A stretch of DNA of 64,000 nt from Pseudogymnoascus verrucosus. Lineage: Eukaryota. Positions 19,547 to 61,014 of the stretch are shown piece after piece (position 1 is the stretch's first letter; the number at the start of each line of letters is the position of its first letter). The notes beneath the pieces were generated by a model, which was given only the letters and a program-made list of their open reading frames with translations, had not been told where the DNA came from and made no database searches. Where the stretch lies: the NCBI GenBank assembly GCA_001662655.1, contig KV460217.1. One strand, 5' to 3'. Both the position numbers and the translations under genes were made by a program.

Positions 19547-20512
19547 GTCTGTCAGTCACCGCTCGCCGTATGCGTCATGTTACTCGAAAAGCTATGCTAG
19601 CAGATTCTCGCTTTATTCGCCAGAATTACGTAGGCAGATTTCGAAGAAGAGCTACTGAGCTGTGCATATGAAAAGCTGGGAAGCCATAAGTTTGTGCTGG
19701 AAAAAGAGGAGGAAGCATCATGTGAATCGCCTAGTCTTTTCAACAATGACTAAAAATTCGGATTTAGTTTAGGTCTACGGGTTTTAAGCTCTAGCTTGGA
19801 ATGAATCGCATCAATGCTTTATTACATGAAGTTGTATTTAAGTATGACTGAATCGGATGTCCTGTGATCCCTCTGTAACACCTCCAAGTCAATACTGATC
19901 CTTTCTATACATAGTCGAATGTCAATACGGCGTAACTCATCTAAAGATTAGATAATAAGCAGCATGGTACGCATGAAAAGTATTTTGAGCTTTGCGCCAA
20001 TCCACCATAAAATACCTACTTCTAAATATCACTTTACCATTATAATAATAATAAAACTATTGTGGCCTTAGAGCCGGTGGGGTGGATTGTACGATTGGCT
20101 TCGAGCCCAAGACTCCGCCCCCACACGGCCCCACACAAGCCGTTCGGCTCAGAGTGGGTGAGTAAAGTTTAGGCTTCAACTCTCATCTCGGGAATAATTG
20201 TTTCTTCCGTAATACTGTCTCAACTAAATTAAACATGGATGCGGCCGGAGTGGGGAAACCGCATAACTGGACATGGATCCGGGCCATCAATAACATCCAG
20301 CAGCCTCACCCGTAGCTTACGGGTTGGTGTTAATCCCCACCAATTTCTGGTACCTATATGTCCCTATATCTCATCGCAAACAAGCCGCTTCGACATCACG
20401 CACGAATTGTTTTGTTTTATACTGATATTTCGACTTCCCTGACAGATTGACAAGCCATTCGAACAAAGCTTCGTTTGAGTTAAAACCATATATTCAACGA
20501 AAATTGGTTACA

Positions 20513-22656
20513 ATGTCGAAATATGAAACCGTCTTAGAGGGGTATGAGCCTTTGAAAGTATTGGTGGCCGGTGGAGGAATTGGCGGCTTATCAGCTGCCA
20601 TCTTCTTGCGTCGCGCAGGACATCAAGTTGAGGTTTGAAAAGCCTTTAAAACTTTCTTCGGGAGAGTCACTAATGTAGAATACAGATCTTTGAATCCTCT
20701 AGATTTGCATCCGAGGCTGGTGCTGCCATCCATATACCAAGCAATGTCAATGGCCTACTGCGAAGGATGGGCATGATCCCAGAAGACCATGGAGCAAACC
20801 AGACAGAATGGGTATCTGAATATCGACCAAATGGAGAAATGGTTTTTCAGAAGGACGTTAGACCATTGTCCTCTGTCTTTCCCTACCCTTGGCAGTTGAT
20901 ACATCGAGTAGATCTACACAACGCACTGAAGAGCATTGCTGTGTCACCGGAAGGGATAGGGCACCCCGTTGTCCTTAATCTGCGAAGCAAGGTCGTGTCT
21001 ATTAACATTGATACACCGTCCTTGACATTAGAGGACGGATTCACGTATACCGGAGATCTGCTCATTGGCGCCGATGGGGTACACTCGAAGCTCAGATCTT
21101 CCATAGCTAAGGATTGCCCATTACCAACTCCATCTGGATCTAGTGCTTTTAGATTTTTGATACCCGCCGATGTCATCCGCGCCGACCCTAAGACTGCTCA
21201 TTTCCTGGAGAGGAAAGGAGAGATGCGTCTCTTATATGGCACCGATCGACGCATTGTAATCTATCCATGCAGAAATAACACACTTATAAACTTCGTGGCC
21301 TTGCACCCCGACGAGGAGACCGAAGCCGATGGAGATAACTGGGACCAGGCAGCATCCAAAGACAGCATGCTATCTTGTTTCTCCTCGTACCCAGAGGATG
21401 TGCGACTGCTCCTTGCGAAGGCATCGGCTGAGACTATTAAATTGTGGAAACTGCTAGATCACGAGGAGCTGGGAAAAGACAATTGGGTGCGCGGGAAAGC
21501 GTGTCTGCTTGGAGATGCAGCCCATGCATTCCTTCCTCACCAGGGTCAGGGTGGTGCGCAAGCTATCGAGGATGGTGCAGCGCTTGGTGCACTTTTCCCT
21601 CTCGGTACGCAAGCATCAGATGTCCCACGTCGACTCCAACTCTACGTTCAGGCTCGTTATGATCGCGCAACACTCGTCCAAGACTTTACACGACAAGCAG
21701 CTTTTAAAACAACACATGGTAAACATGGTGGAAAAGTCATTGACCCAATGCAATTCACAGAGATAAACTTCCGGCACGATGCTTACGATCATGCACGTGG
21801 AATTCTCCTCCGAGAGCTTGCTAGGAACGCCACATACAGGCGAGCGGCCTTCTCCTTTGGACCTTCTCCTGGTCCAAGACAAGATCACATGGGGAGACTA
21901 CGAAATTTGGGAGAGCATTCATATAAGACCTCCTACCTCACATTTAAAACACACAAAAGCTACATTAGCACGCTCTTACCAAGTGAAGAACTGTCAATTG
22001 ACACCAACGGAAGCTGGGCAACGGCCACTCTCGCGGTTACGCGCCTGGCAAACTTGAGCTGGCTTGGTGGCCGGGGCTACTCGTTCTTCGCACTTTATAT
22101 CCACAATGTCACCAGTGACAACAAGACAGCGACTGGCGCCTTGACCGATAATGAGCTCGCAACTGGAGGTGCGAAGAAAGGTGACTTTATCCCTGTCATG
22201 TTCGAGAACAAGGCAGACCCAATTATCACTGGCAGGGAAGAGCTCGGCTTTTCTAAGGTCTTTGCTACCCTGGAAGACACATCCACAGCATCTTCCTATT
22301 CGCTTAGTGCTGGGTGGGAGGGTACTGAATTCTGCACCTTGACCCTAGAGGGTCTGGTTGAAGTGCCATCAGCGGAGCCTACCACTCAGGCTCCCAGTCT
22401 TCACTGGAATGCCATTACGTCCAGCAAAGAAAGTGGCCACAACTACCGCGGAACTGTTACGGTGTACCCTCCTTTTCCTACTTCGGAAGGACAGAGAGAG
22501 TGGAAGGCTGGCGTGGCTAAGGTAAACTTCACAGACCTTGGTGGGCAGCAGCTAGTGCAAGCATTCCCCACTCTATCACACATAATCGAAGGCTTGAGAG
22601 GTATTCAGATCGTCGAGGTACTTAAGAGTGGCGTTTTGGCGTCTAGGGATATGTAG
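20513..22656 (+). CDS. Salicylate-hydroxylase-like FAD monooxygenase fused to a C-terminal acetoacetate-decarboxylase-like domain
   Basis: VAGGGIGG, GADGVHS, LLGDAAH..PHQGQG motifs; C-terminal WLGGRGY..PVMFEN..PIITGREELGFSK; intron 20633-20685. Confidence 0.88.
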
Positions 22657-23094
22657 CCGGATAAATATATTGTTTAGTTTGTCAAATAACTGAGATAAGC
22701 TATATAAAACACGGCATTGTCTTCAAAGGAAAGGCCAACCTTGTACTTTCGCATTTGGATATGTATTTATAATGAGACATATATGCCTCGTCTATAATTG
22801 AAATGGAGTCAAAGTACCGTAGGGGTAAATCGCTTGCGATTAATGTCTTTAATGTTATAGTGGTTGAGTCAGAGATGATAGCGCGAGCCATGAAACATGA
22901 CGCCGCAAATTATCACTCTGGGGTAACTGTCGATCATGGATTCAATGCGGGTTACAAAACCATAGGAATTATCCCAAGCATCTGACATTCAGAAAAGTAA
23001 AAAATAATTCCGTAACTTATGAATTGAATAAACACTCTAACAAGATATAGGTAGTTCTTGTCATGGGAGCAGTAATGCTTCCATATTGACCTAT

Positions 23095-24784
23095 CTAGAC
23101 CAGCCAAAACGTCTTCTTTCTTGCCCATGGTCCCAAGACGTAGAGTGGCACAGCTAATACCAAAATGGCCCATTGGATTGCGGCCATCTCCCAAAACATC
23201 TTGATTAAGCCTTCTCTTGCAAGCCAGATTGGAATACTAAGCGTGACCCCAAAGGCGACGGTATTTTTGCCCGCATTGATAAGTACCAAGGCTTCTGACC
23301 CTGTTGCTGGCCACCCGTCAACTACAACAGACAGAACAACGGACGGAACAAAGACTAGAGCAGAAACCTGCATAGCGTAACCAGCCGCAGCAGCGTATGC
23401 GCTACCTCCGTGAGCTAAGGTGTATGCGAAAAGGAGGAGACCAGGCGGAGCGATGAGGAAAGGCATGAGTAGAGCCGGCATACGATACTCTGGGATATGA
23501 GTCTCTCCGTGAGATCGTTGCCTAAGGAAGCGCGACATGTAATCGGTAAACGGTCCCGCAATAGGGTAGGCTATAACAATGCCGAGGAAAGAAGAGAGTG
23601 CGAAAAGACCAATACCGGATGCTTTGAAGAGGTAGGGAGGGGGAGACAGGAGCTGGGGGGCAACTGTAGCAATTATTACTGCGCTAGGCACTGTCAGAAT
23701 GTATAATACACAGTAGTTTGCTTATGCAGAAGGAACAACAGAAATGTAGTGCTTACCCTCCAAGGAATACACCATAAGAAATGGTTGCGAAGAAAACCTG
23801 TGGTACCAAAATGAAGCGAAATGGGAGCGAAAATTGCCGAGGCCATTCGACCAGTCCGCGTGGTTCGGTACCGCGGTTCTTGAAACTGATGAGATCCCTC
23901 CAATATGACCCAGCGTAAGGCGGATTCAAATTGAGTGCTTGCGACCCAGTAGATTCTGTAGTCACTACAGGCGCATTCACTGCCTCGTTTTTATACTCAA
24001 TCATCTGAACGGCCACCTTATCAGCTTCTTGTGCGGTTTCCCCGTCGTACATAACACGTCGATAGTTCGTCTCGGGAAGGAACAACAAAATCAGGACAAG
24101 ATTCACTCCAATAAGGATAGCGCACAAGATGAAGAACCATCTCCAACCCTTAGCAGTAATGATGAAGCCTGCAATCATAGGCCCAATCTGAGACCCTCCG
24201 GCAAGAAAGATTGAGAATATGGCCATGGCCGTTGCAAAGTAACGCTCCATGTATAGATCTGGCGCACGTCAGCTCCAGATTATTCAATAAATCAGTGAAA
24301 ACTTACCAGCAACTATTGCAGGACCAAGGGAATCGATGCTACCACCAGCGAAGCAAGCTAAGATCCGAGAAGCGACTAGGCTTTGGAATGTTGCAGCCCT
24401 GATGCTCCAGATTGTAGCAGCTAGAAAAACAAAAAGAGCAACTATGATGGTTGCACGCTTTCCTAAGCAAACTGCAGTTGGTGTCCAGAAAACATTACCG
24501 ACACCGAGTGCCAACACGGGATATGAAATCACGTCCACCAACTGGGCGTTGCTAAGGTGAAACTCCATGGCGAGAGCAGCAAACCCGGTCGTAATGCCTG
24601 CCGCGTACATGTTTGCGAGAAACACCATGATGCAAATGTTTGCGAGTGCCAAATGTCTGATGTATGCTGGCCAAAACTGATAACCGTAGTATTAGCATAC
24701 CGGACTTACACATGGAGCATTGGAGGTCTTTCCTACTTTTGGATCGCCAGCTGTGCATTGGGAGAAATCATTCCTTGGGGACAT
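23095..24784 (-). CDS. MFS transporter
   Basis: Hydrophobic exons with GKRATII, ASRILACF, GWRWFF, LPETNY, PEYRMP; introns near 24670-24710, 24257-24307 and 23694-23756. Confidence 0.85.
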
Positions 24785-25324
24785 GATGATAGAAAGTGAC
24801 TCAGTTTGGTCGTATGCATCCAGGTCCTGAGGATATTATGTGTATAAGTGACGGCGATGGGATGTGGCCGCGTATGAGCATTTGCTTCTGTTTCGTCTGT
24901 CCAAGGAGATCGGGGAAGCACATAGAATAAGGCAAAGATAAATCATTGCAGTCCAGATGTACTTCATATAATTGCGTATTGGTATAGCGCGCGGACCCGT
25001 ATTTTGCAATATTGGAAATGATTCTGCGTAGTTAGCGAGACAAAGGGATAGAACCCCACATCACCCGGACCGGGGAAATGGCGGGGGTGGGGAATTTGGC
25101 AAGCAAAAGCTACCCGCCCCCGTATAACAAACACATTCTCAAGTTAAAGTAGCATATTTATCTCTGTGAGGAGCTTCATTGAATACTAGTTTTATTTCGG
25201 ACAAAGCGCGAATAGACTCAAGTGTATGCGCAAATTAGGTAAGGTTGACAATAGTGCAGATTAAGTGAAAGAGATGAATTTGATCAGTTTAATAATTTGC
25301 TCCTTAGATACTCTAAATAGCAGT

Positions 25325-25769
25325 CTACCATTCCCCCCCAATCGCGTAACGAAAGACCTTTGTAAATACTTTTCCTCCAGTACTGCCCCACGTCTGGGCC
25401 ATACCCTATGAGGTCGCATCATTAGTTTGTTATAATCTCTTTCAGTGGTTCCTTGAACATATACAAACTTACTGCATTTAAAGCGACTCCTGTAAACATG
25501 GCAAATAGGAATGCGCGTTCGATCCCGTTACTTCCGTTGGGACGTTCCTCAAAGTTTAACTGGCGATTTAATGGGCGATAGTTGGGGATGCGATTGTGGT
25601 CACGGGGCCAACCAGGAGGATTCTGGACGAGTGTTGTTGTTGAGGACGGATTCAGCGACGCATCAATATTGGCCTCGTTGGTGTCGTTTCCAGAGATGTG
25701 AACCTCGTAATCCTGTAGCGTGCTTTGGAGAGTATAGGTGATAGGGTTTGCTGTCGTCGTGACCGACAT
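25325..25769 (-). CDS. Small hypothetical protein (~125 aa) with C-terminal hydrophobic segment
   Basis: MSVTTTAN...NPPGWPRDHNRIPNYRPLNR...FAMFTGVALNA, GTAAGT intron, exon 2 GMAQTWGSTGG...YAIGGEW*. Confidence 0.7.
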
Positions 25770-26031
25770 CGTGATGAAGGAAGGGAGAAATGAACGAGGA
25801 AAGTAACAGATCCAAAGGAGTCTGTGTCAGTCGTATAGGCAGGATTATTAAAATGTGAGTATGAAAAGTTAATCTTGCAGTTGGCAATTTGGGCACCAAT
25901 GTTTTCGCATGAAAAAAAACCTCACAACAGCTTGTCTGTTTCTATCACCTCTGTTCACTCTCTCTCCATTGCCAGCCGCGGTCATCGGGAAGGGTCATAT
26001 TCTGTTCCGGACTGGGGTGTTCCGAATATAC

Positions 26032-26043
26032 CCCCACATTCCG
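26032..26043 (-). promoter_or_regulatory. Cluster A motif CGGAATGTGGGG (CGG-N3-GTGGGG)
   Basis: Exact 12-mer also at 37639 and 45213; lies in the divergent promoter of the small gene and the ALDH-like gene. Confidence 0.65.
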
Positions 26044-26223
26044 TCGCCTGGAAGCATCACCTGTCAACTGCCGTTCCACGGCAGAAACTGGCGGCAAATG
26101 ACAAACTTCAAAGGATGTAAATCAGATGTGTTCCATGTCATTTTACGATTAATCTTTATTCGTGTTTATTACCATCATAGCGTTTTAAATCCATTGTTGT
26201 TTCGTCCTAAACGTGTTCTCGCA

Positions 26224-27920
26224 ATGTCTTCATTAAGCGGTCTCGAGCAGCTCCGCGCAGCTGCAATTGATGGTAGGACAGAGAACGTCAGGCACAGGCA
26301 GAACGAAATCCAAAAGCTTCATTTATGCCTCCGCGAAAATGCCGCTACCATCTTGTCCTCCATTACCAAGGACTCAGATAGCGGCTCATCGAACACCAGC
26401 CTTGAGTCGGAGGCAGAGTTCTGGCTGACCATGAATGCCGTTGAACAACAATACGACGGGCTCGATTTTGAGGCATCGATCAAACAAGAGTATTTGATTG
26501 TTACCGGGGCCAACAACCAGGGTCGGAGAATTGGGAAGGGTGTGGTTGTTATTCGTCCGACGACACACACGCGGTTCTATTCCATCATAGTTCCGCTTGT
26601 AACTGCCATAGCGGCTGGGAGCTGTACAGCTTTAGAGGTGAGATTCTGCAATCAAATACTATGAAACGACACGCCATTGATACAAACTCTGCGACAGCTT
26701 GCAGATACGATGTTGAATGTTGACTCGGTATTGAAAGATATTCTACCTAAATCGTTAGACCCTGACACATTCTGCATCATAAACGCAACTCTTTACAGCC
26801 AGGAACATGTATTCCTTGTCGACCAAACAGCACAGAGCAATGTATCTTCTGTAGACCGGCTTTGCTCGAACTATTCTGCGCGTGCAATTGCGATAGTCGA
26901 TCGCGATGCCGACATTGAATTTGCAGCAAAAACTATCGTTAAAGCGCGCTTCTCCTTTCAAGGAACTTCACCATACAGCCCCGATTTGATTGTTGTCAAT
27001 GAGTACATCAAGGACGAGTTTACTGAAGCATGCTCTCGTTATGCTGGGAAATTCTTTCCCTCCATGTCGAAATCGATAACAGTACGGAACAACAACTTCT
27101 TAGAAACCAAGAAAGCCCTGAAAGCTGCGGAAGAGAAGGGCGAAGTCACCACATCTGGAACGACACTATTCAAGATTGTGGATATTCATGATAGGTAGGT
27201 CGTGTTAAAACGTTCATGTTTTACGACGGTTAGCATTCTATCGTTCTCCGGTGCTGATACTTTCTAGGAGCTGTCCTATGACCAAGATGAAAATCAGTGG
27301 TTATTGCCTCTCCATAATCTCATCGAGCAGCCTAGTTGACAGCGTCAGCATCAGCAAACTAAGGTGAATTCCGTTCTTTCCCAAAACCCTTATATTCGAT
27401 CTTGCTAATGCGACATAGCCCCGACCTTCTTGCACTCTACACCTTCTCTGACCCAGCAACGGCTAAATTTCTCTCTCAGCATGTCAATGCCCACACAAGT
27501 TTTGCCAACTCTATCCCCTCGCACATACTCGTTGGGCCTGCTGCGCCCATTACCCCCGTCCCCGCACCACCACACCACAAATATAGCACCAACATGTTCT
27601 CGTCACCACGGCCACAATACATCGCCTTGCCGGCACCATCTAGCAACCTCGCACTGATTGACGACATGCTAGCCAGGTTCTACGAGCCTGCGGGACAGAG
27701 CTCGGCTCTGGTGAAATTGAGAGGAAAGGTGGTAGGAAAAGATGGAAAAGCCGCAAAGCTTTTGAAACCAAAGAAGGTACAGCCAGAGGGGAGTCAGTTG
27801 GGATTTTTTGAGCAGGGAATTTTATTAGGTGCAGGATTGGTTTTGACGGTTATCATTTCGACGGCGATTGGGGGGATTTGGGTGGTGAAGCGCTCGATTA
27901 AGGAACAGCGGCCCCTGTAG
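26224..27920 (+). CDS. Aldehyde-dehydrogenase-fold protein (fatty-ALDH-like, C-terminal TM anchor) with degenerate catalytic motifs
   Basis: PLVTAIAAGS, AIVDRDADIEFAAKTIVKARF, SPDLIVVNE, LALYTFS; several introns; TM tail GILLGAGLVLTVII. Confidence 0.8.
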
Positions 27921-28044
27921 CAGTTGACATTAGATATGGGATTGGAAGGTGTATTCGGAGAGAAAAGATATGTACTAGAGAAGTGGATTATGATGCAGGC
28001 ATAAGGAAGTAGTCAGTTTTACATAATCAAAATATTTAGGTGTA

Positions 28045-29886
28045 ACGTAATTCACATACGAGTCGCCCACACAAGCGAGTCGCCCACCAAAACACCAAAA
28101 CGCGTCAACTTAACAAAAGTCAACATGCCACTACCAACACAAGCCCAATCCTCTAATCAAGAGGGTCGAATACTATTAGCTATTAATGCAATTAAACAAG
28201 GCCAGTTTCAAAGTGTTCGAGCAGCTGCAGCATCGTACGATATCCCCCGAACGACCTTACGCGATCGGATTCACGGAATGGCTTCCCGACGTGATTCTAT
28301 TCCTAACTTACAGAAGTTGACTCCGTACGAAGAGTCAGCTCTCGTTCGGTACATCCTTGACCTAGATTCACGTGGATTTCCGCCCCGGCCGCAAGGTGTG
28401 CAAGAAATGGCTGACCTTCTACTCTCCGAACGAGGCGAGAGCTCTGTTGGGAAGAACTAGACTACCAACTTCATAAAACGTCGTACGGAAATTAAAGCAA
28501 AGTTTAGCTGGAAGTACGATTATAAACGAGCAAAATGTGAAGATCCTAAGATAATTCAAGAGTGGTTTTCTCTCGTACGAAACACAGTTGCAAAATATAG
28601 TATTTTAGAGCAGGATATCTACAACTTTGATGAAGCAGGGTTTGCTATGGGAGTTATTGCTACTGCTAAGGTGGTTACAAGCTTAGAGTCAAAGAGTAGT
28701 CGTGCGAAGACTATACAGCTAGGAAATAGAGAGTAGGTGTCAATTATCTAAGGTGTTAATTCGTACGGATGGGCACTCCCGCCGTTCATCATTTTTAAGG
28801 CGCAGAATCACCTCTCTGCTTAGTACAAGGACTTAGGATTACCAGACGATTAGGTGATTACGCTAAGTGAGAATGGGTGGACTTCGAATTCAATTGGGTA
28901 CAAGTGGATTCAACACTTCAATCAGCATACAAATGCTCGTACGATCGGAACGTATCGCCTTCTTATTCTTAACAGACATGAGAGCCACCTCTCTGCTCAA
29001 TTTCAACACTACTGTACAGAACGGAAGATAATTACCCTCTATATGCTACCACACTCGTCGCACATTCTTCAGCCACTTGACGTGAGCTGCTTTACTCCAC
29101 TAAAGCTTTCGTACGGACGTCAGATTAAAACCTTCGTACGGAACAAGCTAAACCATATCACGAAGCTTGAGTTTCTCTCTGCATTTAAGGAAGCATTTAA
29201 AGCTACATTTACAGAGCAGAACATTAAGAGTGGATTCCGAGCTATAGGGCTAGTTCCGTACGAGCCATAGAGTGTCCTCTCTCACTTAAATCTACACTTA
29301 AGAACTCCGACTCCTCCTATAGTTGAGAGTGACAATTGGACTTCAAAGACTCCTTAAACTATAAGGGAGCTTGACTTTCAAACAGAGCACGTTAGGAACC
29401 GCATTATACAGCATCAGAATAGCTCTCCTAGCTCAATTACTAACGCACTAAGCCGGCTTGCTAAAGGAGCTCAGGTTATGATGCATTCTGCTACTCTACT
29501 TAAGGCAGAAGTTAAGGCTCTACAAGCAGCAAATGAACAGAAAAAGAGGAGGGAAAGGAAGCGTAAGAGGCGTATAATGCAAGGGGGAACCCTCTCCGTA
29601 CGAGATGCAGAGGATATCCTTCAAAGTGCTGAGGTTGATGCTCAAGTCCGTACGGAGGTGGCAAGTAGGACTACTCAGCAGGTGGGTTCTACAGGCCGAC
29701 AGAAGCGCTGCGGCTTATGTGGTATTATGGGCCATAACTCCCGTACGTGCAAGAGGCACGAGGATTCAATTACGATCGAATAAGGGTCATTATATAGGGT
29801 GGTGGTGTAGTAGTAGGCAGTAATAGTCAATTTTGGTGTTTTGGTGGGCGACTCGCTTGTGTGGGCGACTCGTATGTGAATTACGT
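28045..29886 (+). mobile_element. Complete pogo/Fot1(Pot2)-type Tc1-mariner DNA transposon, RIP-inactivated
   Basis: Perfect 56-bp TIRs (28045-28100 / 29831-29886) starting ACGTAATTCAC; TA target-site duplication on both sides; transposase inside. Confidence 0.96.
28125..29783 (+). pseudogene. pogo-family transposase (HTH-psq, CENP-B HTH, DDE, C-terminal CCHC knuckle) with in-frame stops
   Basis: One frame with stops at 28458, 28734, 28749, 28821, 28851, 29268 and 29355; YNFDEAGF, LILNRHESH (from LILDGHESH), QPLDVS, CGLCGIMGHNSRTC. Confidence 0.93.
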
Positions 29887-30017
29887 TATTTATTCTGATT
29901 TTAATTAACTTACTATTAAACGCCATATATTAACAGTCGTGTCTCTAATCAGCTATAATAAGGGTAAGGTAACAACGTAGCTTATAAACTAATTATTTTA
30001 AACGTCGAATACTTCAT

Positions 30018-31037
30018 TCAACTCTTTGCACCGCCCGTGGGCCACTTTCCTAATGTAAACTGACTATTGCACATATTCCGCAACTCCCAGTCCTCAGCCC
30101 CCACAGTCGCGGACAAGCCAATATCTTCAAAAGATCCACACAAGCCAGCAACAAACATAGCCGCCATGAAATGATCATCGGTTCCATGTGCATCGCGGTA
30201 CTTTGGGACCTTCATCAGCATAGTCATAGCGCGACGAAGCTCAGGGCCCGATTTCTTGGTGATGGCGTCTTCGAATTCCTGGCGGAAATCCAGCATTTCG
30301 CGGTCGGGCGGTGTTTCCAAGGCAAAGTTATCTAGATGGGAGTCATTAGAGTTTCCAAAATATAAAAATATTGTACTTCAGGGGATGAGCGTGGCATACC
30401 GCGGAATTGCAACATTTGGAACCAGTTATTCCGGTACAAGTTGTGAACGGCACCTCCGGTGCCAATAAAAAGAACATTCTCTTTCCTCAGCGGACGCAGT
30501 GCTGAGCCCACCTTCACGTGGTAGTGAGGATCGTAGCGGGCGTTCATACTGATAATTGTCGTGGGCGGAGAACCACCAGGGAACATGCGGATAAGGATGA
30601 GATAGGTATCATGAATCCAGTCAAACTTGTCGTTGAGTTTGGCCTTCAGCCCACTAGTTTTCAGTAGATCGACACATCGACTAGCCATAGGGAGATCAGG
30701 GACTAGCTCGTAGTCCATGTATTTTGCAGGGTCAACATAGGCAACGGGGGATTTGGCCGGCGTGGGTTTAGCGGCGACTTCTATTTCGTCGCCGGAGGTA
30801 GCCCAGTGTGCACCCTAAAGGAGATACAGATGTGAGCAATAAAATTTCAATTACGCAGCAAAAAAGGAATTGAGAGATAGACGACAAGCTTACCATCATG
30901 ACAACATGCTCGACTTTGTTTGCAAGGGCTTCGTCGCCGCATTGCTTCCAGTAGGTGGCCGACGCCGACTCCTCGCCCAACATCATAGTGGAACCATGGG
31001 AGAAGAAGTGTACAGGAGTAAGCTGAGACTTAGCCAT
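30018..31037 (-). CDS. LigB-type extradiol aromatic ring-opening dioxygenase (4,5-DOPA dioxygenase family)
   Basis: FFSHGS, GAHW, WIHDTY, GTGGAVHNL, AHGTDDHF motifs; introns ~30818-30893 and ~30333-30399. Confidence 0.88.
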
Positions 31038-35300: not shown

Positions 35301-35539
35301 TCCTGGCAGCCGTGGTATTCAACTGGCACTCGAAACGGCCAGAGGCTCAAGACGGCGCACTCATTCAATTAGACGATCCAAACGCTGTTCTGCAGATGGC
35401 TCGGGACTTGTATCGAAATAATTTCCCGTTCAAGGGCGAGCCCTTGCCGCCGCTGGTTGAGAACATTGGGAACTTGATGAGAGACCTTGGCAGTTTGCCT
35501 CAAAATCGATTTTCACGATGTGTAAGCCCAATGGAATGA
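32350..35539 (+). CDS. Transcription factor with two C2H2 fingers, a Zn2Cys6 cluster and a fungal TF domain
   Basis: CGICQRTYERADRLSRH, CQRCQKSFNRADLLTRH, CLACAAAKARCENNKPCRRCQSKDITC; multiple introns. Confidence 0.92.
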
Positions 35540-35982
35540 GGCCTACCTATGGCGGGATTAAGTAATGAGAATGGATCTATGAATATGTCTGTACTCGACT
35601 ACTATTAGTTTTTGTTTTCGGATACAGCCAACACATATTTGTAGAACAGCTAGTGTCCAATTGCTCACTTAAATGAATTCAGTACAGTGATTGTAAACAT
35701 AGCTCATGGTCTCAAAGGGCAGCGCTTGCATGTGTAGATGAGAAGCTGCAGGCTATTTAGTAAGGCGAGTCGGCTTTCAATGTGAATGATTTAGGAAAAC
35801 AATAGATTAAATGGCGGCAAGAACTTGCGCCTTAGACATATAGCAAATATCTCTTTTCGGCGCCTTTCACATAGAATTGGCTGCGGCCCATTGGAGATAG
35901 ATGTTGATTATCTCATGAGGGTTATCTCTCCATTAGAAAGGACATTATGGAACTGGACGCCGGCTTAATCTGAGGAAATTGG

Positions 35983-37409
35983 CTACGGAATAGCTGGATC
36001 TACACTAGTAAATTTTGCTCTGATGGTAGTCACTGTCATTGCATAGCTTTGCGGCACAGGCATAGGAGCTACCAAGTCTGTGGTCGACTCCATGTCCGTA
36101 GCGAATTCGTGTGTCTTGTACATCCCACACCTTTCCGTACGGCGCAGATTGTCATCCGGATGTTGATTGTAGTAGGGGTGAGCTCGTGTGGTATGAATGT
36201 CGCTGTGCCCAGTAGCCGCAGAAGGGGTGCGACAGCTCAAAAAACGGTATAATGGTTTGAGAGGTGGTGCGCAGGCACAAATGAGCCCGACAGAACTTTC
36301 AACAGCTGACCAAGTGGTAATATCGCTTCCATCCCCTATAATTATCACATGCTCTTAGTAACATATACGGAAATCATAGTTATGTGCTCGAAACCAGTGA
36401 TTCGGAACAGAATAGCATGATGCATGAATAGAACGCCAATTAAAACCAAAATAACTCACAAGCTTGATCACTGCTGGTGTTGAACTGAGTGACCCGTGCG
36501 AGACGTACAATTGCAGCTACGATAACAAGAGAGGCGAGGGACACAATTGCCAGGAGCGCAGCCTTTTGGCCACGGTCAATTTTTAGTGACACTGCGAAAA
36601 TGTAAGTCATGGTCATCTCGTTCAGTGTTCAGCCATAACATACTGATGTGAGGAATAATGAAGAGCAAGAGCACGACATCGCACAAGATATTACAGATTG
36701 CAGTTACCCAAAGCGTGATAAGATAATTGCTACACTGTCCCAAACTCTTGACCTGCCAGGCTTTGCTAATGGGGCGACACTGAAAGATGCTTGTAAACAT
36801 CACTGAAGTTGTGTAGGAACCAACAAAAGCCATGAAACCATATACTGCATATCGGCCTCTCTTGTGGCTTCTGAAGATCCGTAAAAACAACGCACAGATA
36901 GCAATCTTGGTAATACCTAGCACAAGCAGGTAGATGAGACGAGTGAAAAAGCCTAGTAACAGTGTTTTCTGATATTGCTCCTCGGTTATGGTATCTTGAT
37001 GGCGCCCCGCGCCGTACCTCGTGAGAAGACAGTTCAGGAATATGAGAATAGTCTCAAAGATCTACCGAAGTATTTAGCATCCATTGGCATATACGGGCGT
37101 GAATTAGCTACCCAAGCGACTGCAATCCATGAATCATCTGTGCCCCAATTGCGGGTCAGAAATATTCGAGTGAAGAAACGAGCAACGACAGTCACGGACG
37201 CAATTGTGAAAGGAACCAAACTTCCAACCAGTATTTCTTGTATACGGGACTCGCTCAAATACTTTTGGTCCTAGACATTCGTTAGAGCTCGTTCATGATC
37301 GACTTTTAGACATCCTTAACGACGATAGTGCCCAAAGTGAGATTGCTCCACAAAGTTGGTAAATCATTTAGGAAAAGAAAACAAGCTGACGTACGTTTGA
37401 TGTTGGCAT
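35983..37409 (-). CDS. PTH11-like (fungal rhodopsin-domain) integral membrane protein
   Basis: MPTSN|intron|DQKYLSESR..ARFFTR..WGTDDSWI..YGAGRH..KIAICALFLRIF..FQCRP..WSAVESSVGLICACAP. Confidence 0.82.
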
Positions 37410-37638
37410 TGTTTGATTTTATAGATAGAAACAGTAATATAATAATATGGTCCAGGCTTTTCGATTGAGGATAGAAAAACCCTGGAAATATTCAAATTCA
37501 AGATCGGTAAAAAGCAGGCGAACTAACCCTTTTTTAACTCTTTTTCAGTCTCTCCTGCCCTAACATTTTATCCCCCCCACTTCACTTTTGGAACATGGGG
37601 TAACTCAGGGGTCATCTGCATATTGACAGGCACAGGGC

Positions 37639-37650
37639 CGGAATGTGGGG
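37639..37650 (+). promoter_or_regulatory. Cluster A motif CGGAATGTGGGG
   Basis: Exact copy 230 bp upstream of the PTH11-like ATG. Confidence 0.6.
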
Positions 37651-38148
37651 TTCACTAGAGGTAATGTAACGTCTGCTTGGAAGTGTTCCATGTGGCAGTG
37701 GAGACTTTATAAGTTTCACTGGCGCATCGATGCAGTATATGGTTCCTTGCATAATTATTGCGTGGACAACTGTCCTTAAATTATTCTCCCCAGCATATAG
37801 AGCCACTTTTCAATAAAGGTGGTCGCCGGGTCTACGTACCACACTGTAACGACCCCATCGTCAACGATGAGGAACTAATCGCACACACTCCAGTGTCAGC
37901 GACTGATTCAAGCAACTCCTACGAATACTAAAAGTCCTGATATGACTGAAATCCAAATGGTGATTCAATAGCTCTCATAACCTATCCGACACTCCAAAAG
38001 CCCAACCTGGAAGAGTGGCCTCAGGGTGGTTCAACTCCACCGTCGAAGCTCCTGGTGGCAAGGCACCTCTTCTGCCCTAAGGGCAATCAAAACAACTACA
38101 ATGCTTCTACGTACCACCAAACATTCAATAATGACTAGTAACTAAATA

Positions 38149-39477
38149 TCAGAGTTGCGCTGGTAGAACTTTTCCAGTACATTCTCCAAAACCCACGCCA
38201 TTTGATGCCAATGCGGATATCCGTATTTCATCACCATCCTCAATGTAAACCCTTGACTTTCCATCACCAATTTCAAAGCTGTCTTGTCCACCCTTGGTAA
38301 GTTCTAGTAGGCATCCGTGGCTCTCATCTGTCGAGCCCGATATTGTACCCGTACCTAAGATGTCGCCGGTGTTCAGGCAGCATCCATTGCTGCTCTGATG
38401 CACGACTAAATCTCGGAAAGTCCAATACATAGCATTGAGATTGCTCTTACAGATAGTGGTCGATGTGCCACTAGTTATAATATCAGCCTGCAGGGCTATG
38501 TCGTAGCTGTTAATGGGATTGGGATCCACGAGATATGATGCAACCTCCAACTCGCGTGGCTGGCCTATGATTGCCGAGGCTTGTAGTGCATCCAAGGTGA
38601 TTATCCAGGGTGACATCGATGTGGCGAAGCTCTTCCCGTTGAGTGGACCTAATGGGGTCATTTCCAAACCTTGGATATCTCGCGCTGAATCGTAGTTAGG
38701 TAAAACATCCATTGAGGTCAAGCATGGCCGACTTACCACTCCAGTCATTCATGAGGACATATCCAAATATGTGGTCATCGGCGTCCTTGCTTGTAACAGT
38801 TTCACCCAACTTGGTGGGCTTACCGACGATACAGGCTAACTCCAACTCGTAATCGAGCTGCTCTGTTGGTCGATATTTTATGCCGCCTTGACCATCGCGG
38901 AATTGTCCTTTAGGCCTGACAAATGATGTCCCCGAAACAATTATCGAAGAAGTTCGCCCAGAATAACCTATTGGGAAATGCAGAAACGCGGGTGGGAGAT
39001 AGCGTTTCTTCAGTATTGCTTCGCCAGCATTAAGTACATGGTCCTTTGAACACGAGAAATCCGTAAAGTCGCGGCTCGAGACGGGGAGATGCATGGTAAC
39101 ATCCTTAAGTTCGGCTGTAGATCCAGCTGGGAAAGATGTAAGAGGTTCTTTGAATAGGGTCTGGAGTGCTGCTCTAGCTTGTTGGTGGATAGATCTAGGA
39201 AGTGCGGCAAAGTCGTTGAGAACAACCTTCATAAATTAGACATGTCTTAAAAAATGTCACTTAATGGAAAGAATTAGAAAAACCGCACCTGAGAGAAGGC
39301 ATGAAGTGCTTCGTTTGGCAAAGAAGACAGGAGATCATGTTTTGCGAGTTCATCGAGGTATATCACCGTATTTTCCAGTCGGGTAACTGCAGACGGGCGG
39401 GGATGGTCTTCACTGCTTCCAATTCCGAATGGAATATTACAGACTGAAAAGTGGGAGGCGAACATAGCGGTGGACAT
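38149..39477 (-). CDS. Fumarylacetoacetase (FAH family)
   Basis: HFSVCNIPFGI, DFTDFS, LDYELE, MNDWSARDIQ, PLGPLNGKSF, GDILGTGTISG. Confidence 0.92.
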
Positions 39478-39803
39478 GCGTGAGCTCTGTGAGTCTAGTA
39501 AAAGGGTTTCTGAAAAGTGTAGCTATAAGAAGCAATGAAGTATTTTTTTCGAGGTGGTAAATTGATTTTGACTACTTTTTACTTTTCGAACCGTTTCTCT
39601 GTATGTATGTGCCCGTACACGCTCCCCCTCACCCGCCTTGCCAGCAGTTTGTCCACAAGTGACACAACACTGCATACCATTGAAAACGTACAATAAGTAT
39701 TAACCTGATACGATTGGCAAATCAAATGCCGAGGATTGAATAAGACGCAGCGTCGCAATTCGGGTCGGTAATGGATGGCCAGTTCCTCAGCCATCGACCC
39801 GGC

Positions 39804-39825
39804 CCCCACTATCCGGCCGGTGGGG
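39804..39825. promoter_or_regulatory. Two overlapping inverted CGG-N3-GTGGGG sites in the FAH/cupin divergent promoter
   Basis: CCCCAC-TAT-CCG (39804-39815) and CGG-CCG-GTGGGG (39814-39825). Confidence 0.6.
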
Positions 39826-39986
39826 GTTGGTCCGTTACAACATGTACTAGATATCCAGCCACTCTTTGAAAGTGACCGATATTCGCTCTGATCTCATTTC
39901 AAATCTCATAAATGATTTAATGGCCATTATCCTCAATCAGCTTACCAATTTGACTTGACCACTTCTTCAATTAATTCCTTCACAAA

Positions 39987-40544
39987 ATGGCGAGCTATGT
40001 CAAACCCAGCCCCCTCCCTCCCATCAACCGATACATTACAACCAATTCGGAAACAGGCACAGCACTCCTGGACGCTACCATCTCCAACACAGCCTCATGG
40101 ACCAGCGCCGGTGTAGCCAATTTCTTTCTTGGCTACTGCACGTCTGCCAACCCCGTCTCATTTAAAGCCGACGCCGACATTAAAGCCTATAGCAAGTATC
40201 TTGCTGAGCCTCCTGGCCTTGTCGTCCCCAATGGCACCGTCCTTCGCGTCGTCGACATGATGCCAGGTGAGCTATCGCCTATGCACCGAACCACCAGCTT
40301 GGACTACGGAGTCGTGCTAGAGGGCGAGGTCGAGTTGATTCTAGACGGAGGCGAGAAGAGAGTCATGAAGCGAGGGGATATTTGTGTGCAGAGAGGTACG
40401 AACCACGCCTGGAGGAATTGCAGCAATACGGAGTGGTCAAGGATGTTGTATGTTTTGACGGAGGCGTCACCGGTAGAATTAGAGGATGGAAACAAGTTGG
40501 AGGAAGATTTGGGGGGCATGGTAGGGGTGAGAAAGAGTGCCTAG
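39987..40544 (+). CDS. Cupin-2 domain protein
   Basis: SPMHRTTSLDYGVVLEGE, GDICVQRGTNHAWRN; intronless 185 aa. Confidence 0.9.
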   Translation: MASYVKPSPLPPINRYITTNSETGTALLDATISNTASWTSAGVANFFLGYCTSANPVSFKADADIKAYSKYLAEPPGLVVPNGTVLRVVDMMPGELSPMHRTTSLDYGVVLEGEVELILDGGEKRVMKRGDICVQRGTNHAWRNCSNTEWSRMLYVLTEASPVELEDGNKLEEDLGGMVGVRKSA

Positions 40545-40858
40545 TGACCTGGGCAGGGATATGGAGCGCAATTGTCATAGGTTTGGCTAGTTTATAGGAT
40601 GAAACAGATGAACTAACGAAGAACTGAGTCGCCCTCGCAAAATTATAAATAACTGATTTCGTGCCGCTACTATTTAAGATAAACAATGGAGACGCAAGGT
40701 ATGGATAATTTATCAATGTACTTTTACAATTTTGCCAGAAATAATTTCATTACTGTACCAAATCATTCATTTTTTATCTTACATTCAACTGTAACAATAA
40801 CAGTACTAAGATTTATGATGCTAAACTATATATAATCATGCCTGCCTTAATATGTTCT

Positions 40859-42921
40859 CTATCTTTTAGGTATAATTGGAAGTGTGACGTAGTTGTCTAT
40901 GCCTTCTCCAAAATGGAGATTGTTCGTCCCGGAAAAAATATTCTTGGATCTTTTGAAGAAATTAGCATGGAAGCGCAGAATTGCTTACGGCAAAAAGAGA
41001 AGAGCCATAGAACGAAAGCCACGACATACCTGTCTTTCACATTTGTGTGCGTAAAAATGCCACTCCCCTGAGTGTCTCCAGAGGAAATTTCAAATACTAT
41101 TCTACCCCCCTTTTCAGCGATCACGTTTGTCGGCCAGACCTCGACATCGACCGCGTAGATAGCATTAGGTTTGACCTCCTGGACATCGATTGAGCGGTAC
41201 TCGCGGTACGGCTGGTACTCGCTGTGGCGTGGGTGATCCGTGGCAACCTTCCGCAGTGAGACACGGAGCCAGCCTTTGGCGAGAGGGATAGGATCACCAG
41301 CAGTGCCAGTGTAGTGGACCTCTTTGCCGGACGGGTCGATGTAGCGTATGGTCACAAAAAGGTCGATGTCCTTCTGTGAGGCGGTAGCAGTGGAGTCCGG
41401 AGTTAAGGAAACATTTAAATGGGCAGTTATATGCCCTGTAATCTCAGTGTCGGCCTCAAATGGAGCACTGATGAATTGGACTAGCTGTGGACTTGAAAGA
41501 TTTCCAAGGGCTTCGTATGAGATGGTTGAAGAACCAACAAATGGGACAGTAGTAGAAAGGGTGTTCTCGGGTGTCAGATAGAACTTGGTATACTGTGTTC
41601 CCTCCAATGGCCATTCTGGCTCTTCTCGCCTTTCGTACACTTTTTCTGACTCTGCGTTATTGAATCCCACATTACCTTTGCGTAAGATGATGCTTACGGG
41701 TGCGACTTTGCCTGGAGTAGACCATCCAACTCTATCGTCACCTTTAAGAAAGGCATCAAGGAAGGATCTTTGAACCTCAACTTCCTCCTTGCAGTAGAAC
41801 GGCAGATCGTGGCGACCGGTAATAAAGCGAAGATACTTTAGCTTGGACCCTGCCCACTTGTACCCGTTGATGTTACCTATATGATCTGTTAGACATTACT
41901 AGTAGGTTATGGGTGATACAGTACTAACCTCTCAAATGTAACAATATCCCTCCCCAGTTAGCCACGGACAAAACAGGAACCTCGATATCCCCAAGGTTAA
42001 ATTCCTTGGATGCATAGTAAGTGTCGTCTAGAAATTTATTTTTCTCGTTGTCGATGTTCTGATCATTTCGATTCTGCATCAATACATCCTCAGGCAAATC
42101 ACCTTCAGCTGTGTCCTCGCCCCATTTGGATGCGGCGCGGCCAGGCTTTCCGTACTGATTCGTAACAACTTGTCGATTCCACCAAAATTTGATGAAGTCG
42201 TTTGATAATATACCGCCATGTCGACACCGATCACGATAGTAGTCTGTCATGCCTTCCCATGGCACTATTGCAGCGAGGCCCTTGGGCCTGCGTGCCGCTA
42301 CTCGCCACTGACTGCCTATTCATATCCATAAGTTGGTTTTCACTGTGAAACATAATGAGATACATACCTGCATAGTAACTTATTCCTAGCAAGCCCACCT
42401 TACCTGATGACCAAGGCTGCTCCGATGCCCATTCGACAACATCGAAAAAACACTCGCTCGTGCTTCTTGACATTGTGTCCAGCAAGCCTGGACTTTGTCC
42501 TAGTCCCCGCTCATCACATCGAACTACGACATAGCCCTTTGAAGTCCAGAACACCGGGTCGGGTGTCTCCCACGCGCTGTACTTGCTCTTATGCTCAGGA
42601 TTCACTTCCGAGAATGACTTGGCAAAGAAACTAGACGCAATTGTTAGTATGCAATCAAATTACGACGCGATAAAAGAATCCCAAGCTGTACAAATCAAAG
42701 GGTTCTTACTTGTCATAATGGATGTCTTTCCCGTACGGCCCATAGGTCACCAAAACTGGAAACTTCTCGTCTGCTGATTGGGATAACGGCCGATACACAT
42801 TGCAGCGTACGGGTAGAGGAGAATCTTTTAGAGGCACGGAAACATTCTTTTCGAATACTAGGTTGTTCTCTCTGTCCTCTGTGATTGTCAACAGATCCCT
42901 GATATTATTTGTGATTGACAT
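40859..42921 (-). CDS. CocE/NonD (peptidase S15-like) alpha/beta hydrolase
   Basis: VTYGPYGKD, WETPDP, DERGLGQSPG, GISYYAG nucleophile, ITGRHDLPFY, KGWLRVSLRK, EVWPT; several introns. Confidence 0.9.
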
Positions 42922-43116
42922 CTCCGCAAAATTGAAGACCGTAGTCTGGTAACGGGTTTAGTTGGTAGCAGATAGGGTATGACTTCAGGATATGTTGATA
43001 TCTAAAGTAAGTATTTAAGAGTATATAATATGTGGGGGTTTAAAGGAGCACGCAATTATAAATTGAGAAATGCGCTTCTTTGGTAAGAGTGGGAATAGGC
43101 TACCTACCCCCACCAC

Positions 43117-43128
43117 CGGGAAGTGGGG
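43117..43128 (+). promoter_or_regulatory. Cluster A motif CGG-GAA-GTGGGG upstream of the CocE/NonD hydrolase (near-copy cccacattccg at 43422)
   Basis: Matches CGG-N3-GTGGGG. Confidence 0.55.
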
Positions 43129-43474
43129 GTGGGTTATCATGTATCGGCAAGTTCTGACCAAGATTTTAGTCGGAACTAACTATTTGTTTCCCTCAAGGTT
43201 CGCACGGCATTCACGACCACTAAAAGTATGAGTACACTGCGCAGTAATTTGTTTCAAAGTACTTGAACGGAAGTACTACTTCAATTATCATGTTCGTTGC
43301 TGCCACTACTACCCCTGTGCCTGCTTTCAGCCTCCGACTCCGATTGGGTCTTGTCCCCCGGAGGAACTGCGTTGCCAGGTTTCCGATGTGCTTTTGCTCA
43401 TTGTTTTTTAATCCGTAATCACCCACATTCCGTATAGCCTGAACCTATTCCGGAGACAGGTAGACCTCCAAATC

Positions 43475-45058
43475 CTAGTTTTTGGTGTAGCCTTTCCGCT
43501 CCACCACCGTCCCACAAAAGTTCTCCGGCTTCACAAACCACCTACTCACCGATCTCCACTCTTTATTTCTCACCTCATCATCGAGAACAAATTCAAACCT
43601 CCTCACTACCTCCGGAATAAGTTTGCTCACCTCTAGCAAGCTCAAATTCTTTCCAATACATGTCCGACTACCCATCCCAAACGCAAAGAAATAACGCTCA
43701 ACATTTGCCCCATTGTTATGCTCCTTAATCTCTAACCAGCGCTCTGGCCGCCAGGTGTCTGCATCAGCCCCGTACACGGAAGTGTTACGATGTGCCACCC
43801 AGGCGTTGATGCCGACCGTGCAGCCAGCGGGGAATTTCTGCCCGGCAAGCGTGGCACCACAGGGAGGTACCACACGTGAGAGAGGTAATCCGGTGGCTGA
43901 GTGTAGGCGGAGGCCTTCTTTGATAACAGCTTGGAGGAAGGGAAGTTGGGTAGCTTCTTTGAAAGTGATTGGGTCAGAGATAGCACCTGCGGCTATGCCA
44001 GCGTCGATTTCGTTTTGGAGGCGCTTGTACGTAGCAGGGTGCTTAAGGAGATGATAGAGGACCGAGGAGAGCGTGATGGCGGTCGTGTCGCTACCTGCCC
44101 CAATGTTGCTCTGGCAGATGGTAAATAAGTCACTTGGTGTCATTTTCTCTGGATCTTCAGCACGAAGAGCCAGAAACTTAGACACAAAATCGGGTGGGCC
44201 ATCACGGTCTTGACTTTTGGGGTCTTTGAGCAACGCCTCTCGTGACGCGATCTGAGATTTGGTATAACCTGCGACATATCCGTGGCCCCCAGTAGATGGA
44301 AGAAGAGGGAAGAGGATATTGTGGAGCTTTGGGAATATGCCAACGTATGTGCTGTATGAACCTCGCGAGTCAATGGCTCCGAAGACTCCTTCCTTATCAA
44401 CGCCCATGTCGAGGAATCCAAAGCGCTTTCCAAATGTTATCTCGCCAATAACATCGAACGCGTAGCATTGGAACCAAAGCCCAAAGTTCACTTTCCGGCC
44501 GGTCTGAGCTATCTCATGGAAGCGCAAAACGAACAGACAGCTACAGTTATCAACAAACGGCTCGTAGCCCACAAGAGAGCTCATTGAGTATGCGGAAGCA
44601 AACTTGCGGCGTTGTACGCCATGGCGATGAGGGTTAAGGTCGGCAAAGAGGGACGCCTTGTCGGGATCTGGCGGCATCCATGCCCAGTACCATGGAGCCT
44701 GGTTAGTTCGTTAGATTAGTAAACTAAAGGCTGGAGATGGCCATCGAACCTTGACAAACGCATTTCCATGCCCGTAGATTATTTTCGCGGCTTCAACGTC
44801 GTCGATGGAATACTCATTCGGCGCAATCCGCACAACTGGCCCATACTTCTTATGGAGGTCGACATTCGTCCTCTCAAAATCGCCTTGGTATATTTTATAG
44901 AGATACCACAGACGTGTGAATCGTGCAAGAGGCGGTCCTGGAACGCTGCGTAGCGGATCAATGAGCCACGAGACCAAGCTAAAAACAACACAGAGAGCAG
45001 CTCCAAGAGGCAAAATACTGCCTAAAGACAGTGATAGTAATTCCTTCAACATTGACAT
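43475..45058 (-). CDS. Cytochrome P450 (pisatin-demethylase-like)
   Basis: N-terminal TM, PGP, YGPVVRIAPNE, AGSDTT, EGLR, PERW, FGMGSRTCIG; intron ~44700-44749. Confidence 0.94.
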
Positions 45059-45212
45059 TGCCACAAATGTTCTATTGCTCGACTTGAAGAATTACATAGG
45101 GAGTATGGCGTCTTATTATACGCTGTAATAGTGAAGCAAGCGTTGCATAGTTAACGGAAGGCAACTGATGTTCACCTGTGTGGGAATTGCGGGGTAATCC
45201 CCCCTCACTTAT

Positions 45213-45224
45213 CCCCACATTCCG
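45213..45224 (-). promoter_or_regulatory. Cluster A motif CGGAATGTGGGG upstream of the P450
   Basis: ccccacattccg, exact copy. Confidence 0.62.
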
Positions 45225-45514
45225 CGGCCCCAACCCGGCAATATCTAAACGACCCCGATAATCTTCTCGGCAGGCCGCCGCTCCCGAAATTCAATTACAA
45301 CGCTGACTTTTCGTGAACTACCGGGTCATTTTTCAGGTGCTGGAATGCGACTGTGCAAACCTTATAGATACCTATACCGATTTTCATTAGTAGGGTGACT
45401 CCGCAAGTCTTTTTCTACTAAAGACGGATAAGCTATTAGACATGAGACAAAACGATCCAACGATATAAGATTTAGCTAAAAATATACGTTTTCCTCATGC
45501 AAGAGTCTACGGAC

Positions 45515-60938: not shown

Positions 60939-61014
60939 AATGTCTTAATAAATATTCGTCGACTACTAAAAATAATATGAAAAACCATGTCCCAAGGAAG
61001 TTACGACCGGGGCC

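Follow-up and report, generated by a model that had tools for sequence, protein, structure and literature searches.

The 64,000-nucleotide stretch of Pseudogymnoascus verrucosus contig KV460217.1 analyzed here (the window) holds a catabolic gene cluster whose promoters carry a composite element, CGG-N3-GTGGGG. We hold with high confidence that this element is real, conserved, and cluster-specific. The regulator encoded within the cluster at 32350, in which two C2H2 zinc fingers precede a Zn2Cys6 module, is its likely binder, and the two domains plausibly read the two halves of the element as outlined below. For the explanation as a whole, a conserved upstream activating element of an aromatic-acid cluster that serves as the composite site of the 32350 regulator, the evidence is somewhat in favor.

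Motif counts were tested on both strands of the 64-kb window against expectation and against 100 dinucleotide shuffles, with the window itself and the fetched related loci as the background for enrichment. The pattern CGG-N3-GTGGGG (CGGNNNGTGGGG) occurred six times versus 0.25 expected, and none of the 100 shuffles reached six. All six copies were confined to 26032-45224 and comprised three exact copies of CGGAATGTGGGG together with copies at 39804(-), 39814(+), and 43117(+). CGGAATGTGGGG is the commonest form in the window of an approximate consensus, C-CGG-[AGT][AT][TC]-GTGGGG; with up to one mismatch allowed it occurred four times versus 0.20 expected, a count that no shuffle reached. GTGGGG alone was found 44 times versus 24.25 expected, again with 0 of 100 shuffles reaching the observed number. 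At spacings from N0 to N8 between CGG and GTGGGG the window counts were 0, 1, 2, 6, 0, 4, 0, 1, and 0, with the mode at N3 and N5 in second place (20129(-), 20242(+), 25054(-), and 31437(+)). All motif copies were intergenic and lay 150-500 bp 5' of start codons. No direct repeat families of at least 25 nt were detected in 19000-48000, and the differing flanks of the copies held no common extension of the kind that would mark membership in a repeat or miniature inverted-repeat transposable element (MITE) family; the copies are therefore treated as independent occurrences.

Most of these positions had been listed in an earlier note on this DNA. Its exact copies at 26032(-), 37639(+), and 45213(-), its three other N3 copies, and its remark that no N3 copy lies outside the cluster agreed with the present counts. 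The copy matching 11 of 12 positions was present one base away from the coordinate given for it (43422), at 43421-43432(-), and the listed N5 copies at 20242, 25054, and 31437 were found together with a fourth that had been missed, at 20129(-). The statement that every cluster promoter has a site held for the broader form CGG-N(1-5)-GTGGGG, which occurred in all eight cluster promoter regions. It did not hold for the N3 form, which occurred in five of the eight: the promoters of a small gene and an aldehyde dehydrogenase (ALDH) gene, a rhodopsin-like gene, the fumarylacetoacetate-hydrolase (FAH) family and cupin genes, a Peptidase_S15-type (S15) hydrolase gene, and a cytochrome P450 gene.

Specificity was examined by splitting the window into three parts: the intergenic DNA of the cluster (9.4 kb), the remaining cluster, and the DNA outside. 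GTGGGG reached a density of 2.02 per kb in cluster intergenic DNA versus 0.12 per kb in the rest of the cluster and 0.60 per kb outside. The seven other variants of the SYGGRG consensus and the one-letter neighbors of the hexamer, among them GCGGGG, CTGGGG, CCGGGG, and GTGGAG, stayed flat at 0.2-0.6, 0.2-0.7, and 0.2-0.7 per kb, respectively. GTGGGG fits SYGGRG, yet the CreA/Mig1-type consensus as a whole was not enriched. Since GTGGGG was the sole enriched variant, plain CreA sites are unlikely. An unbiased k-mer ranking of cluster intergenic DNA against the rest of the window placed GTGGGG first at k=6, GTGGGGG first at k=7, and CGGAATGTGG joint first at k=10. The AT-rich k-mers AAAGTATT, TGAAAAGT, and AAATCATT also ranked high and were set aside, as their flanks are unrelated and they look like intergenic composition. 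A separate word, TGAAAAGTG, was found four times in cluster intergenic DNA (31779, 37805, 39445, and 39511) and nowhere else in the window, also with unrelated flanks; it may be a second element or mere AT-rich composition.

The CGG half occurred at a preferred distance from these boxes. CGG stood at N3 on the 5' side of 6 of the 21 cluster boxes, versus none at N1-N7 among the 23 boxes outside the cluster (Fisher P = 0.0077), and no comparable CGG excess was seen downstream of the cluster boxes. Given that CGG has a local frequency of 0.0112, finding it at one offset in six of 21 boxes has a binomial P of 9.2e-8. This non-random offset bears on a reading in which only GTGGGG matters, bound by the fingers of the regulator, by CreA through SYGGRG, or by both, with CGG arising as a side effect of promoter patches rich in G+C. 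Glucose repression is common among catabolic clusters, which counts for that reading. It can also draw on the fit of GTGGGG to the SYGGRG consensus as quoted in PMC13609398, on the close pairing of boxes (20119/20129, 25054/25087, and 37575/37645), on the roughly 8 of 21 cluster boxes without CGG at N1-N7, and on the loose spacing, with four copies at N5, two at N2, and one at N1. However, the offset is restricted to the 5' side of cluster boxes, the cluster intergenic DNA has a G+C content of 0.44 and shows no enrichment of the other SYGGRG variants, and the longest invariant promoter blocks take in CGG and spacer as well as the box. We regard a role for GTGGGG alone as unlikely, although it keeps some weight.

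The expectation that the element would be conserved in orthologous promoters was borne out in related clusters. Metagenome contigs were scanned with the first exon of the regulator, giving six loci. L001 (21.3 kb of a 208-kb contig) encodes a regulator 46% identical to that of the window and a matching gene set: MFS transporter, fusion of a monooxygenase with an acetoacetate-decarboxylase-like (ADC-like) domain (2520-4493, +), small gene, ALDH, LigB-type dioxygenase, regulator, S15, cupin, and FAH. L004 (12 kb) carries ALDH, LigB, and the regulator, and L002 the regulator and the S15 hydrolase. L006 was rejected as an orthologue (36% identity over 109 residues, G+C 0.595) and used only as an unrelated control. 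L001 contained three copies of CGGNNNGTGGGG versus 0.05 expected, with none of 100 shuffles reaching three. Each lay in a promoter region (small-gene/ALDH, S15, or cupin/FAH) whose window counterpart bears N3 copies; the cupin/FAH copy reads CGGGTCGTGGGG at 16533(-). Allowing GTGGRG added a tandem partner in L001 and two tandem copies in the S15 promoter of L002. Over L001, L002, and L004 together, N3 was the modal spacing, seen in 4 of 21 boxes (P = 5.4e-5).

Promoter comparisons were consistent with these counts, across clusters with a protein identity of only 43-61%. The longest invariant block in a three-way alignment of the ALDH promoters of the window, L001, and L004 was CCACATTCCG, the reverse complement of CGGAATGTGG. 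It was also the sole 10-mer common to the three promoters, a length that none of 2000 shuffles attained. The longest word common to the monooxygenase promoters of the window and L001, ATGCGGCCGGAGTGG, covers the site at 20242, and 15 nt was reached by 3 of 2000 shuffles; its conservation implies that at least this N5/N1 variant is under constraint as well. The LigB/regulator region of L004 carried CCGGCCCGGTGGGGGTGGGG at the place matching the 31437 site of the window, and the LigB/regulator promoters gave no reliable alignment with their orthologues. The S15 promoters of the window, L001, and L002 had C[CT]CCAC[TA]TCCCGG in common when the sequences were compared directly (MAFFT misplaced the window site), in the window within the doublet at 43108-43128; conservation in this promoter is of pattern and not of letters.

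The regulator gene (32350-35539, +) encodes a pair of C2H2 fingers and, after them, a six-cysteine Zn2Cys6 motif, as had been noted before, and its C-terminal region lies in a second exon. The fingers are two C-x2-C...H-x3-H units (Pfam zf-C2H2, 35.9 bits) with the helices RADRLSR and RADLLTR. The Zn2Cys6 motif lies C-terminal to them after a 23-residue linker and is complete (C-x2-C-x6-C-x5-C-x2-C-x6-C); the Zn_clus domain of the orthologues scored above the cut-off of 21 bits, with 22.3 in L001 and 24.8 in L004. The second exon in the window had no Pfam hit at E <=0.01. Fungal_trans (PF04082) is carried by full-length homologues and scored 22.3 bits in L001 versus a cut-off of 23. Homologues numbered 143 proteins at E <=0.001, the closer relatives being Leotiomycete, and among the 120 listed were proteins named C6 transcription factor, "related to Pig1p", and "nicotinate catabolism cluster-specific transcription factor". 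The complete pattern of two fingers and cluster was found in 105 of 123 family proteins examined. Positions -1, 2, 3, and 6 of finger 2 were R, D, L, and R in all 105. Those of finger 1 were R, D, H, and R in 83 and R, D, R, and R in 21, including the window, L001, and L004, and the linker between finger 2 and the cluster measured 19-23 residues in 95 of the 105. No second regulator gene was found by Pfam scans in the cluster or in L001.

Zinc fingers engage DNA antiparallel to its G-rich strand, and by the standard recognition code finger 2 would specify G-T/H-G and finger 1 GGG, that is, 5'-GTGGGG-3'. Because of the antiparallel binding, a module C-terminal to finger 2 would fall 5' of GTG, where CGG sits. 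The order of the half-sites thus fits the domain order of the regulator. An AlphaFold2 model of 156 residues (24-sequence alignment, mean predicted local distance difference test (pLDDT) score 64.5) placed the fingers at 80-91 and the linker at low confidence. Past the last cysteine it showed no helix over 43 residues, and residues 116-137 and 141-150 fell below a pLDDT of 50; the missing helix would fit, if weakly, a protein without a Gal4-type coiled coil. A second CGG of Gal4 type at a common distance was not found around the three exact copies, whose flanks are unrelated. The single CGG of each exact copy and the modeled absence of a post-cluster helix hint at a possible binding as a monomer, as the earlier note proposed.

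In the model we propose, the element would act as an upstream activating element of the aromatic-acid catabolism cluster, and the 32350 regulator would occupy it as a composite site. The G-rich hexamer would be read by the two C2H2 fingers, GTG by RADLLTR of finger 2 and GGG by RADRLSR of finger 1. The Zn2Cys6 module, about 22 residues C-terminal to finger 2, would read CGG (chiefly GG) in the next finger-slot on the 5' side of the same strand. Since the finger helices are near-invariant across the family, paralogue-specific recognition would come from the CGG half-site, the spacing, and the spacer. Sites would be used singly, as head-to-head CCGG doublets in divergent promoters, or as 17-bp tandems, and two molecules per promoter would be common. 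Competition by CreA at the same GTGGGG boxes is conceivable because the hexamer is also a CreA-type core, a speculative suggestion. More tentatively, the model could be extended to a general grammar for the C2H2+Zn2Cys6 family: a common finger box (GTGGGG/GHGGGG), paralogue targets chosen through GG/CGG 3 bp upstream plus the spacer, one chain per 12-bp site, layouts that set promoter strength and direction, and sharing with CreA, through which the same bases would serve both induction and glucose repression.

The individual sites illustrate these layouts. Exact copies of CGGAATGTGGGG lie at 26032-26043 (-), in the divergent promoter of the small gene (ATG 25769, -) and ALDH (ATG 26224, +), 181 bp 5' of the ALDH ATG; at 37639-37650 (+), 5' of the Fung_rhodopsin-domain gene (-, partial open reading frame (ORF)) and 3' of FAH; and at 45213-45224 (-), 155 bp 5' of the P450 ATG (45058, -). 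The 11/12 copy at 43421-43432 (-), CGGAATGTGGGT, lies about 500 bp 5' of the S15 hydrolase ATG (42921, -). A head-to-head doublet, CCCCCAC-CA-CCGG-GAA-GTGGGG (43108-43128), with N3 on the plus and N2 on the minus strand, follows about 190-205 bp 5' of the same ATG. The divergent promoter of FAH (ATG 39477, -) and cupin (ATG 39987, +) holds a palindromic doublet on both strands, CCCCAC-TAT-CCGG-CCG-GTGGGG (39804-39825), formed by two opposite-strand N3 copies with the CCGG core in common. About 260 bp 5' of the monooxygenase ATG (20513) stands the variant GCGG-CCGG-A-GTGGGG (20239-20255, +), which can be read as N5 or N1, and two direct GTGGGG boxes 10 bp apart occupy 20119-20142 (-), the second with CGG at N5. 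An inverted box pair, CGGGTGATGTGGGG (N5, -) and CGGGGGTGGGG (N2, +), lies 5' of the MFS gene at 25054-25092, and the N5 variant CGGGTCCGGTGGGG at 31437-31450 (+) in the LigB/regulator intergenic region stands about 400 bp away from the LigB ATG (31037, -) and some 900 bp from that of the regulator.

Similar arrangements occurred in the relatives. L001 has a head-to-head doublet with a CCGG core at 5548-5568 (CCCAC-ATT-CCGG-TAC-GTGGGG), and a doublet with N2 on one side, as at 43108-43128 in the window, is found in L004 at about 5849-5872. By hand count, about 10 of 15 N3 copies have a C before CGG, giving the palindromic CCGG. Tandem copies exactly 17 bp apart from start to start were found at 13269/13286 and 1851/1868 in L001 and at 2769/2786 in L002; of these three promoters, two are orthologous to each other. 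Together, the CCGG doublets and 17-bp tandems suggest that two molecules often meet on one promoter.

Several observations weigh against a single conserved composite site for the regulator. The N5 count of four is above chance, so that spacing is loose, and three of the eight promoter regions (monooxygenase, MFS, and LigB/regulator) hold only N5, N2, or N1 variants. A relaxed match, CGGCAAGTGGGT at 18120-18131 (+), about 200 bp 5' of a GH5 cellulase ORF, falls outside the proposed left cluster limit. The 12 kb of L004 contained no exact CGGNNNGTGGGG, only CGGAATGTGGAT and N2, N4, and N5 forms. The longest exact word shared by the three S15 promoters measured 7 nt, which 1203 of 2000 shuffles reached and which is not significant, and the cupin/FAH promoters did not align with their orthologue, though both carry N3 copies. 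The Zn_clus score of the window protein, 20.7 bits (E 4.5e-4), is just below the cut-off. In the CCGG-core doublets the two CGG triplets overlap by 2 bp, and two Zn clusters may not fit on them jointly; either one Zn cluster is engaged at a time or mainly the GG pair is recognized. Two L001 copies read GGGAATGTGGG, which lacks the C of CGG and points in the same direction as recognition of the GG pair. Finally, the AAT spacer recurs in four window copies, three L001 copies, and one L004 copy, and its conservation is not accounted for by a simple two-half-site model.

This spacer is also an argument for a reading in which the 12-mer joins overlapping sites of two proteins, a C2H2 protein on GTGGGG and a separate Zn2Cys6 factor (CCGG/CGG) or TEA/ATTS factor on the left half. 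The reverse complement of the 12-mer contains CATTCC, which we take to be an AbaA-type CATTCY, and the CCGG palindrome created by the preceding C also counts for this reading. However, the spacers TAC, GAC, GTC, GAA, ATA, and CCG keep CGG and GTGGGG and lose CATTCC, so that the TEA reading suits only the AAT copies. TEA factors act in development, and the lack of a second regulator gene in the cluster and in L001 also counts against two proteins, a reading we find improbable. Chance recurrence or dispersed repeat or transposon remnants can be set aside as highly improbable: a transposon (28043-29888) and a probable multi-copy element (38012-38108) do lie inside the cluster, but no shuffle matched the observed counts in the window or L001, the flanks are unrelated with no direct repeat of at least 25 nt, and matching promoters in distant orthologous clusters carry copies.

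The gene map was built from Pfam scans of large ORFs and start-codon searches, and the domain assignments below are from Pfam where a family is named. At the left, a single ORF (20513-22656, +) fuses an FAD monooxygenase to an acetoacetate-decarboxylase-like domain (PF06314); the closest solved relatives of the monooxygenase are decarboxylative vanillate and 4-hydroxybenzoate 1-hydroxylases. It is followed by the MFS transporter (23095-24691, -) and by the small conserved gene (25422-25769, -), which has no Pfam domain and is 54% identical to its L001 counterpart (5022-5354, -). In every case, the small gene was divergent from the ALDH gene. The 5' part of ALDH (26224-27198, +) is 61% identical to L001. 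Between ALDH and LigB lies a pogo/Tc5-like DNA transposon (28043-29888; HTH_psq, HTH_Tnp_Tc5, and DDE_1 pieces) that ends in perfect 58-nt terminal inverted repeats (100% complementary) and is lacking at this place in L001. The LigB-type extradiol dioxygenase (30332-31037, -), a relative of 4,5-DOPA dioxygenase, precedes the regulator, after which come the Fung_rhodopsin-domain membrane protein (36576-37061, -, partial ORF), FAH (38149-39477, -), a Cupin_2 protein (39987-40544, +), the S15 gene, which is a CocE/NonD-type hydrolase (Peptidase_S15 + PepX_C; 40897-42921, -), and the cytochrome P450 (43475-45058, -). Because of this enzyme set, including a LigB protein resembling 4,5-DOPA extradiol dioxygenases, the cluster looks like one for catabolism of a hydroxy- or methoxy-benzoate-type aromatic acid. 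The cluster is of a Leotiomycete-like fungal type.

The suggestion that the motif defines the cluster limits was upheld in part. Synteny with L001 covers MFS, monooxygenase, small gene, ALDH, LigB, regulator, S15, cupin, and FAH. The P450 and rhodopsin-like genes would belong by the motif alone, and the three promoter regions with only N5, N2, or N1 forms also limit the claim.

Other features were observed along the window. In X13, one of four sequencing runs compared with 30000-45400, one contig spans the stretch with 675 substitutions among 780 differences, and one long contig has 24 other letters in place of 298 bp (37807-38106). At least five other X13 contigs pile up on 38012-38108, where depth is about 200 versus 33 elsewhere; this pile-up and raised depth suggest a short multi-copy element just 3' of FAH, near 38012-38108. 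A second catabolic-looking gene group occupies 51639-63480, headed by a Fungal_trans-domain regulator (51639-53525, -) and also holding a zinc-type alcohol dehydrogenase, Amidohydro_2, NAD_binding_2/DUF1932, a mitochondrial carrier, and an MFS protein. A GTGGGG pair 15 bp apart, 53843/53858(-), lies 5' of that regulator and has no CGG at N1-N7. A phenol-hydroxylase-type FAD monooxygenase (FAD_binding_3 + Phe_hydrox_dim; 4968-6649, -) is located 14 kb left of the cluster and carries GTGGGG boxes within its coding sequence (5959 and 6172).

C2H2+Zn2Cys6 factors are widespread in ascomycetes, with roles in the control of melanin, nicotinate use, and further pathways. The element described here offers a concrete 12-bp candidate site whose halves stand in the same order as the protein domains, which turns the question of joint DNA reading by both domains into a direct experiment of half-site and spacing mutation. 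It also gives a practical handle to delimit the regulon of an uncharacterized aromatic-catabolism cluster, and if the grammar were general, the targets of paralogous regulators would be predictable in the same way.

Among known systems, HxnR of the Aspergillus nidulans nicotinate regulon is likewise specific to a catabolic cluster and has two N-terminal C2H2 fingers, according to PMC8478523 and PMC5746545. Its site, GHGGGG, came from a zinc-finger predictor and is stated there as not experimentally determined (PMC8478523). The HxnR-named homologue has the helices RADHLTR and RADLLTR, and the predicted GHGGGG includes GTGGGG, in agreement with our reading of the window regulator's helices by the standard recognition code. 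HxnR differs in that its authors describe it as a Cys2His2 factor and make a fingers-only prediction with no CGG half-site or spacing. The enzymes also differ, as the window cluster encodes a decarboxylative hydroxylase-ADC-like fusion, LigB, cupin, FAH, and a CocE/NonD hydrolase. The dual-domain family was first described for Cmr1/Pig1, which share the architecture of two C2H2 fingers and Zn2Cys6 in one protein and in which both domains are reported as functional in vivo, as summarized in PMC5415576 and PMC8232033. According to Shelest 2017, DNA recognition by this combination "remains obscure" (PMC5415576). Cmr1/Pig1 differ in controlling melanin biosynthesis and not catabolism, and a Pig1-type homologue had little identity with the window protein beyond the DNA-binding region (19-20% query coverage). 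No experimentally defined DNA site for Cmr1/Pig1- or HxnR-type factors was found in the accessible literature that was searched.

The sites of CreA/Cre1/Mig1 are alike in their identical G-rich core hexamer, two C2H2 fingers, and frequent pairing in catabolic promoters. CreA has no Zn2Cys6 domain, and its sites differ from those of the window, where only GTGGGG is enriched and has CGG coupled to it at a set distance on its 5' side. Zn clusters read the CGG triplet as their unit; Gal4-type sites are dimeric (CGG-Nx-CCG), while the AlcR-type Zn2Cys6 binds as a monomer to single CGG-containing half-sites in direct or inverted repeats. The half-site arrangements of AlcR resemble the singles, doublets, and tandems in the window and its relatives. 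In contrast to AlcR and Gal4, the partner of CGG in the window is a zinc-finger box and not a second CGG, and the model predicts no coiled-coil-like helix within the 43 residues that follow the cluster. What appears to be new, judged by sequence, is a pairing of zinc-finger box and Zn-cluster triplet at a set spacing, kept across orthologous clusters, which would act like a cluster-specific upstream activating element.

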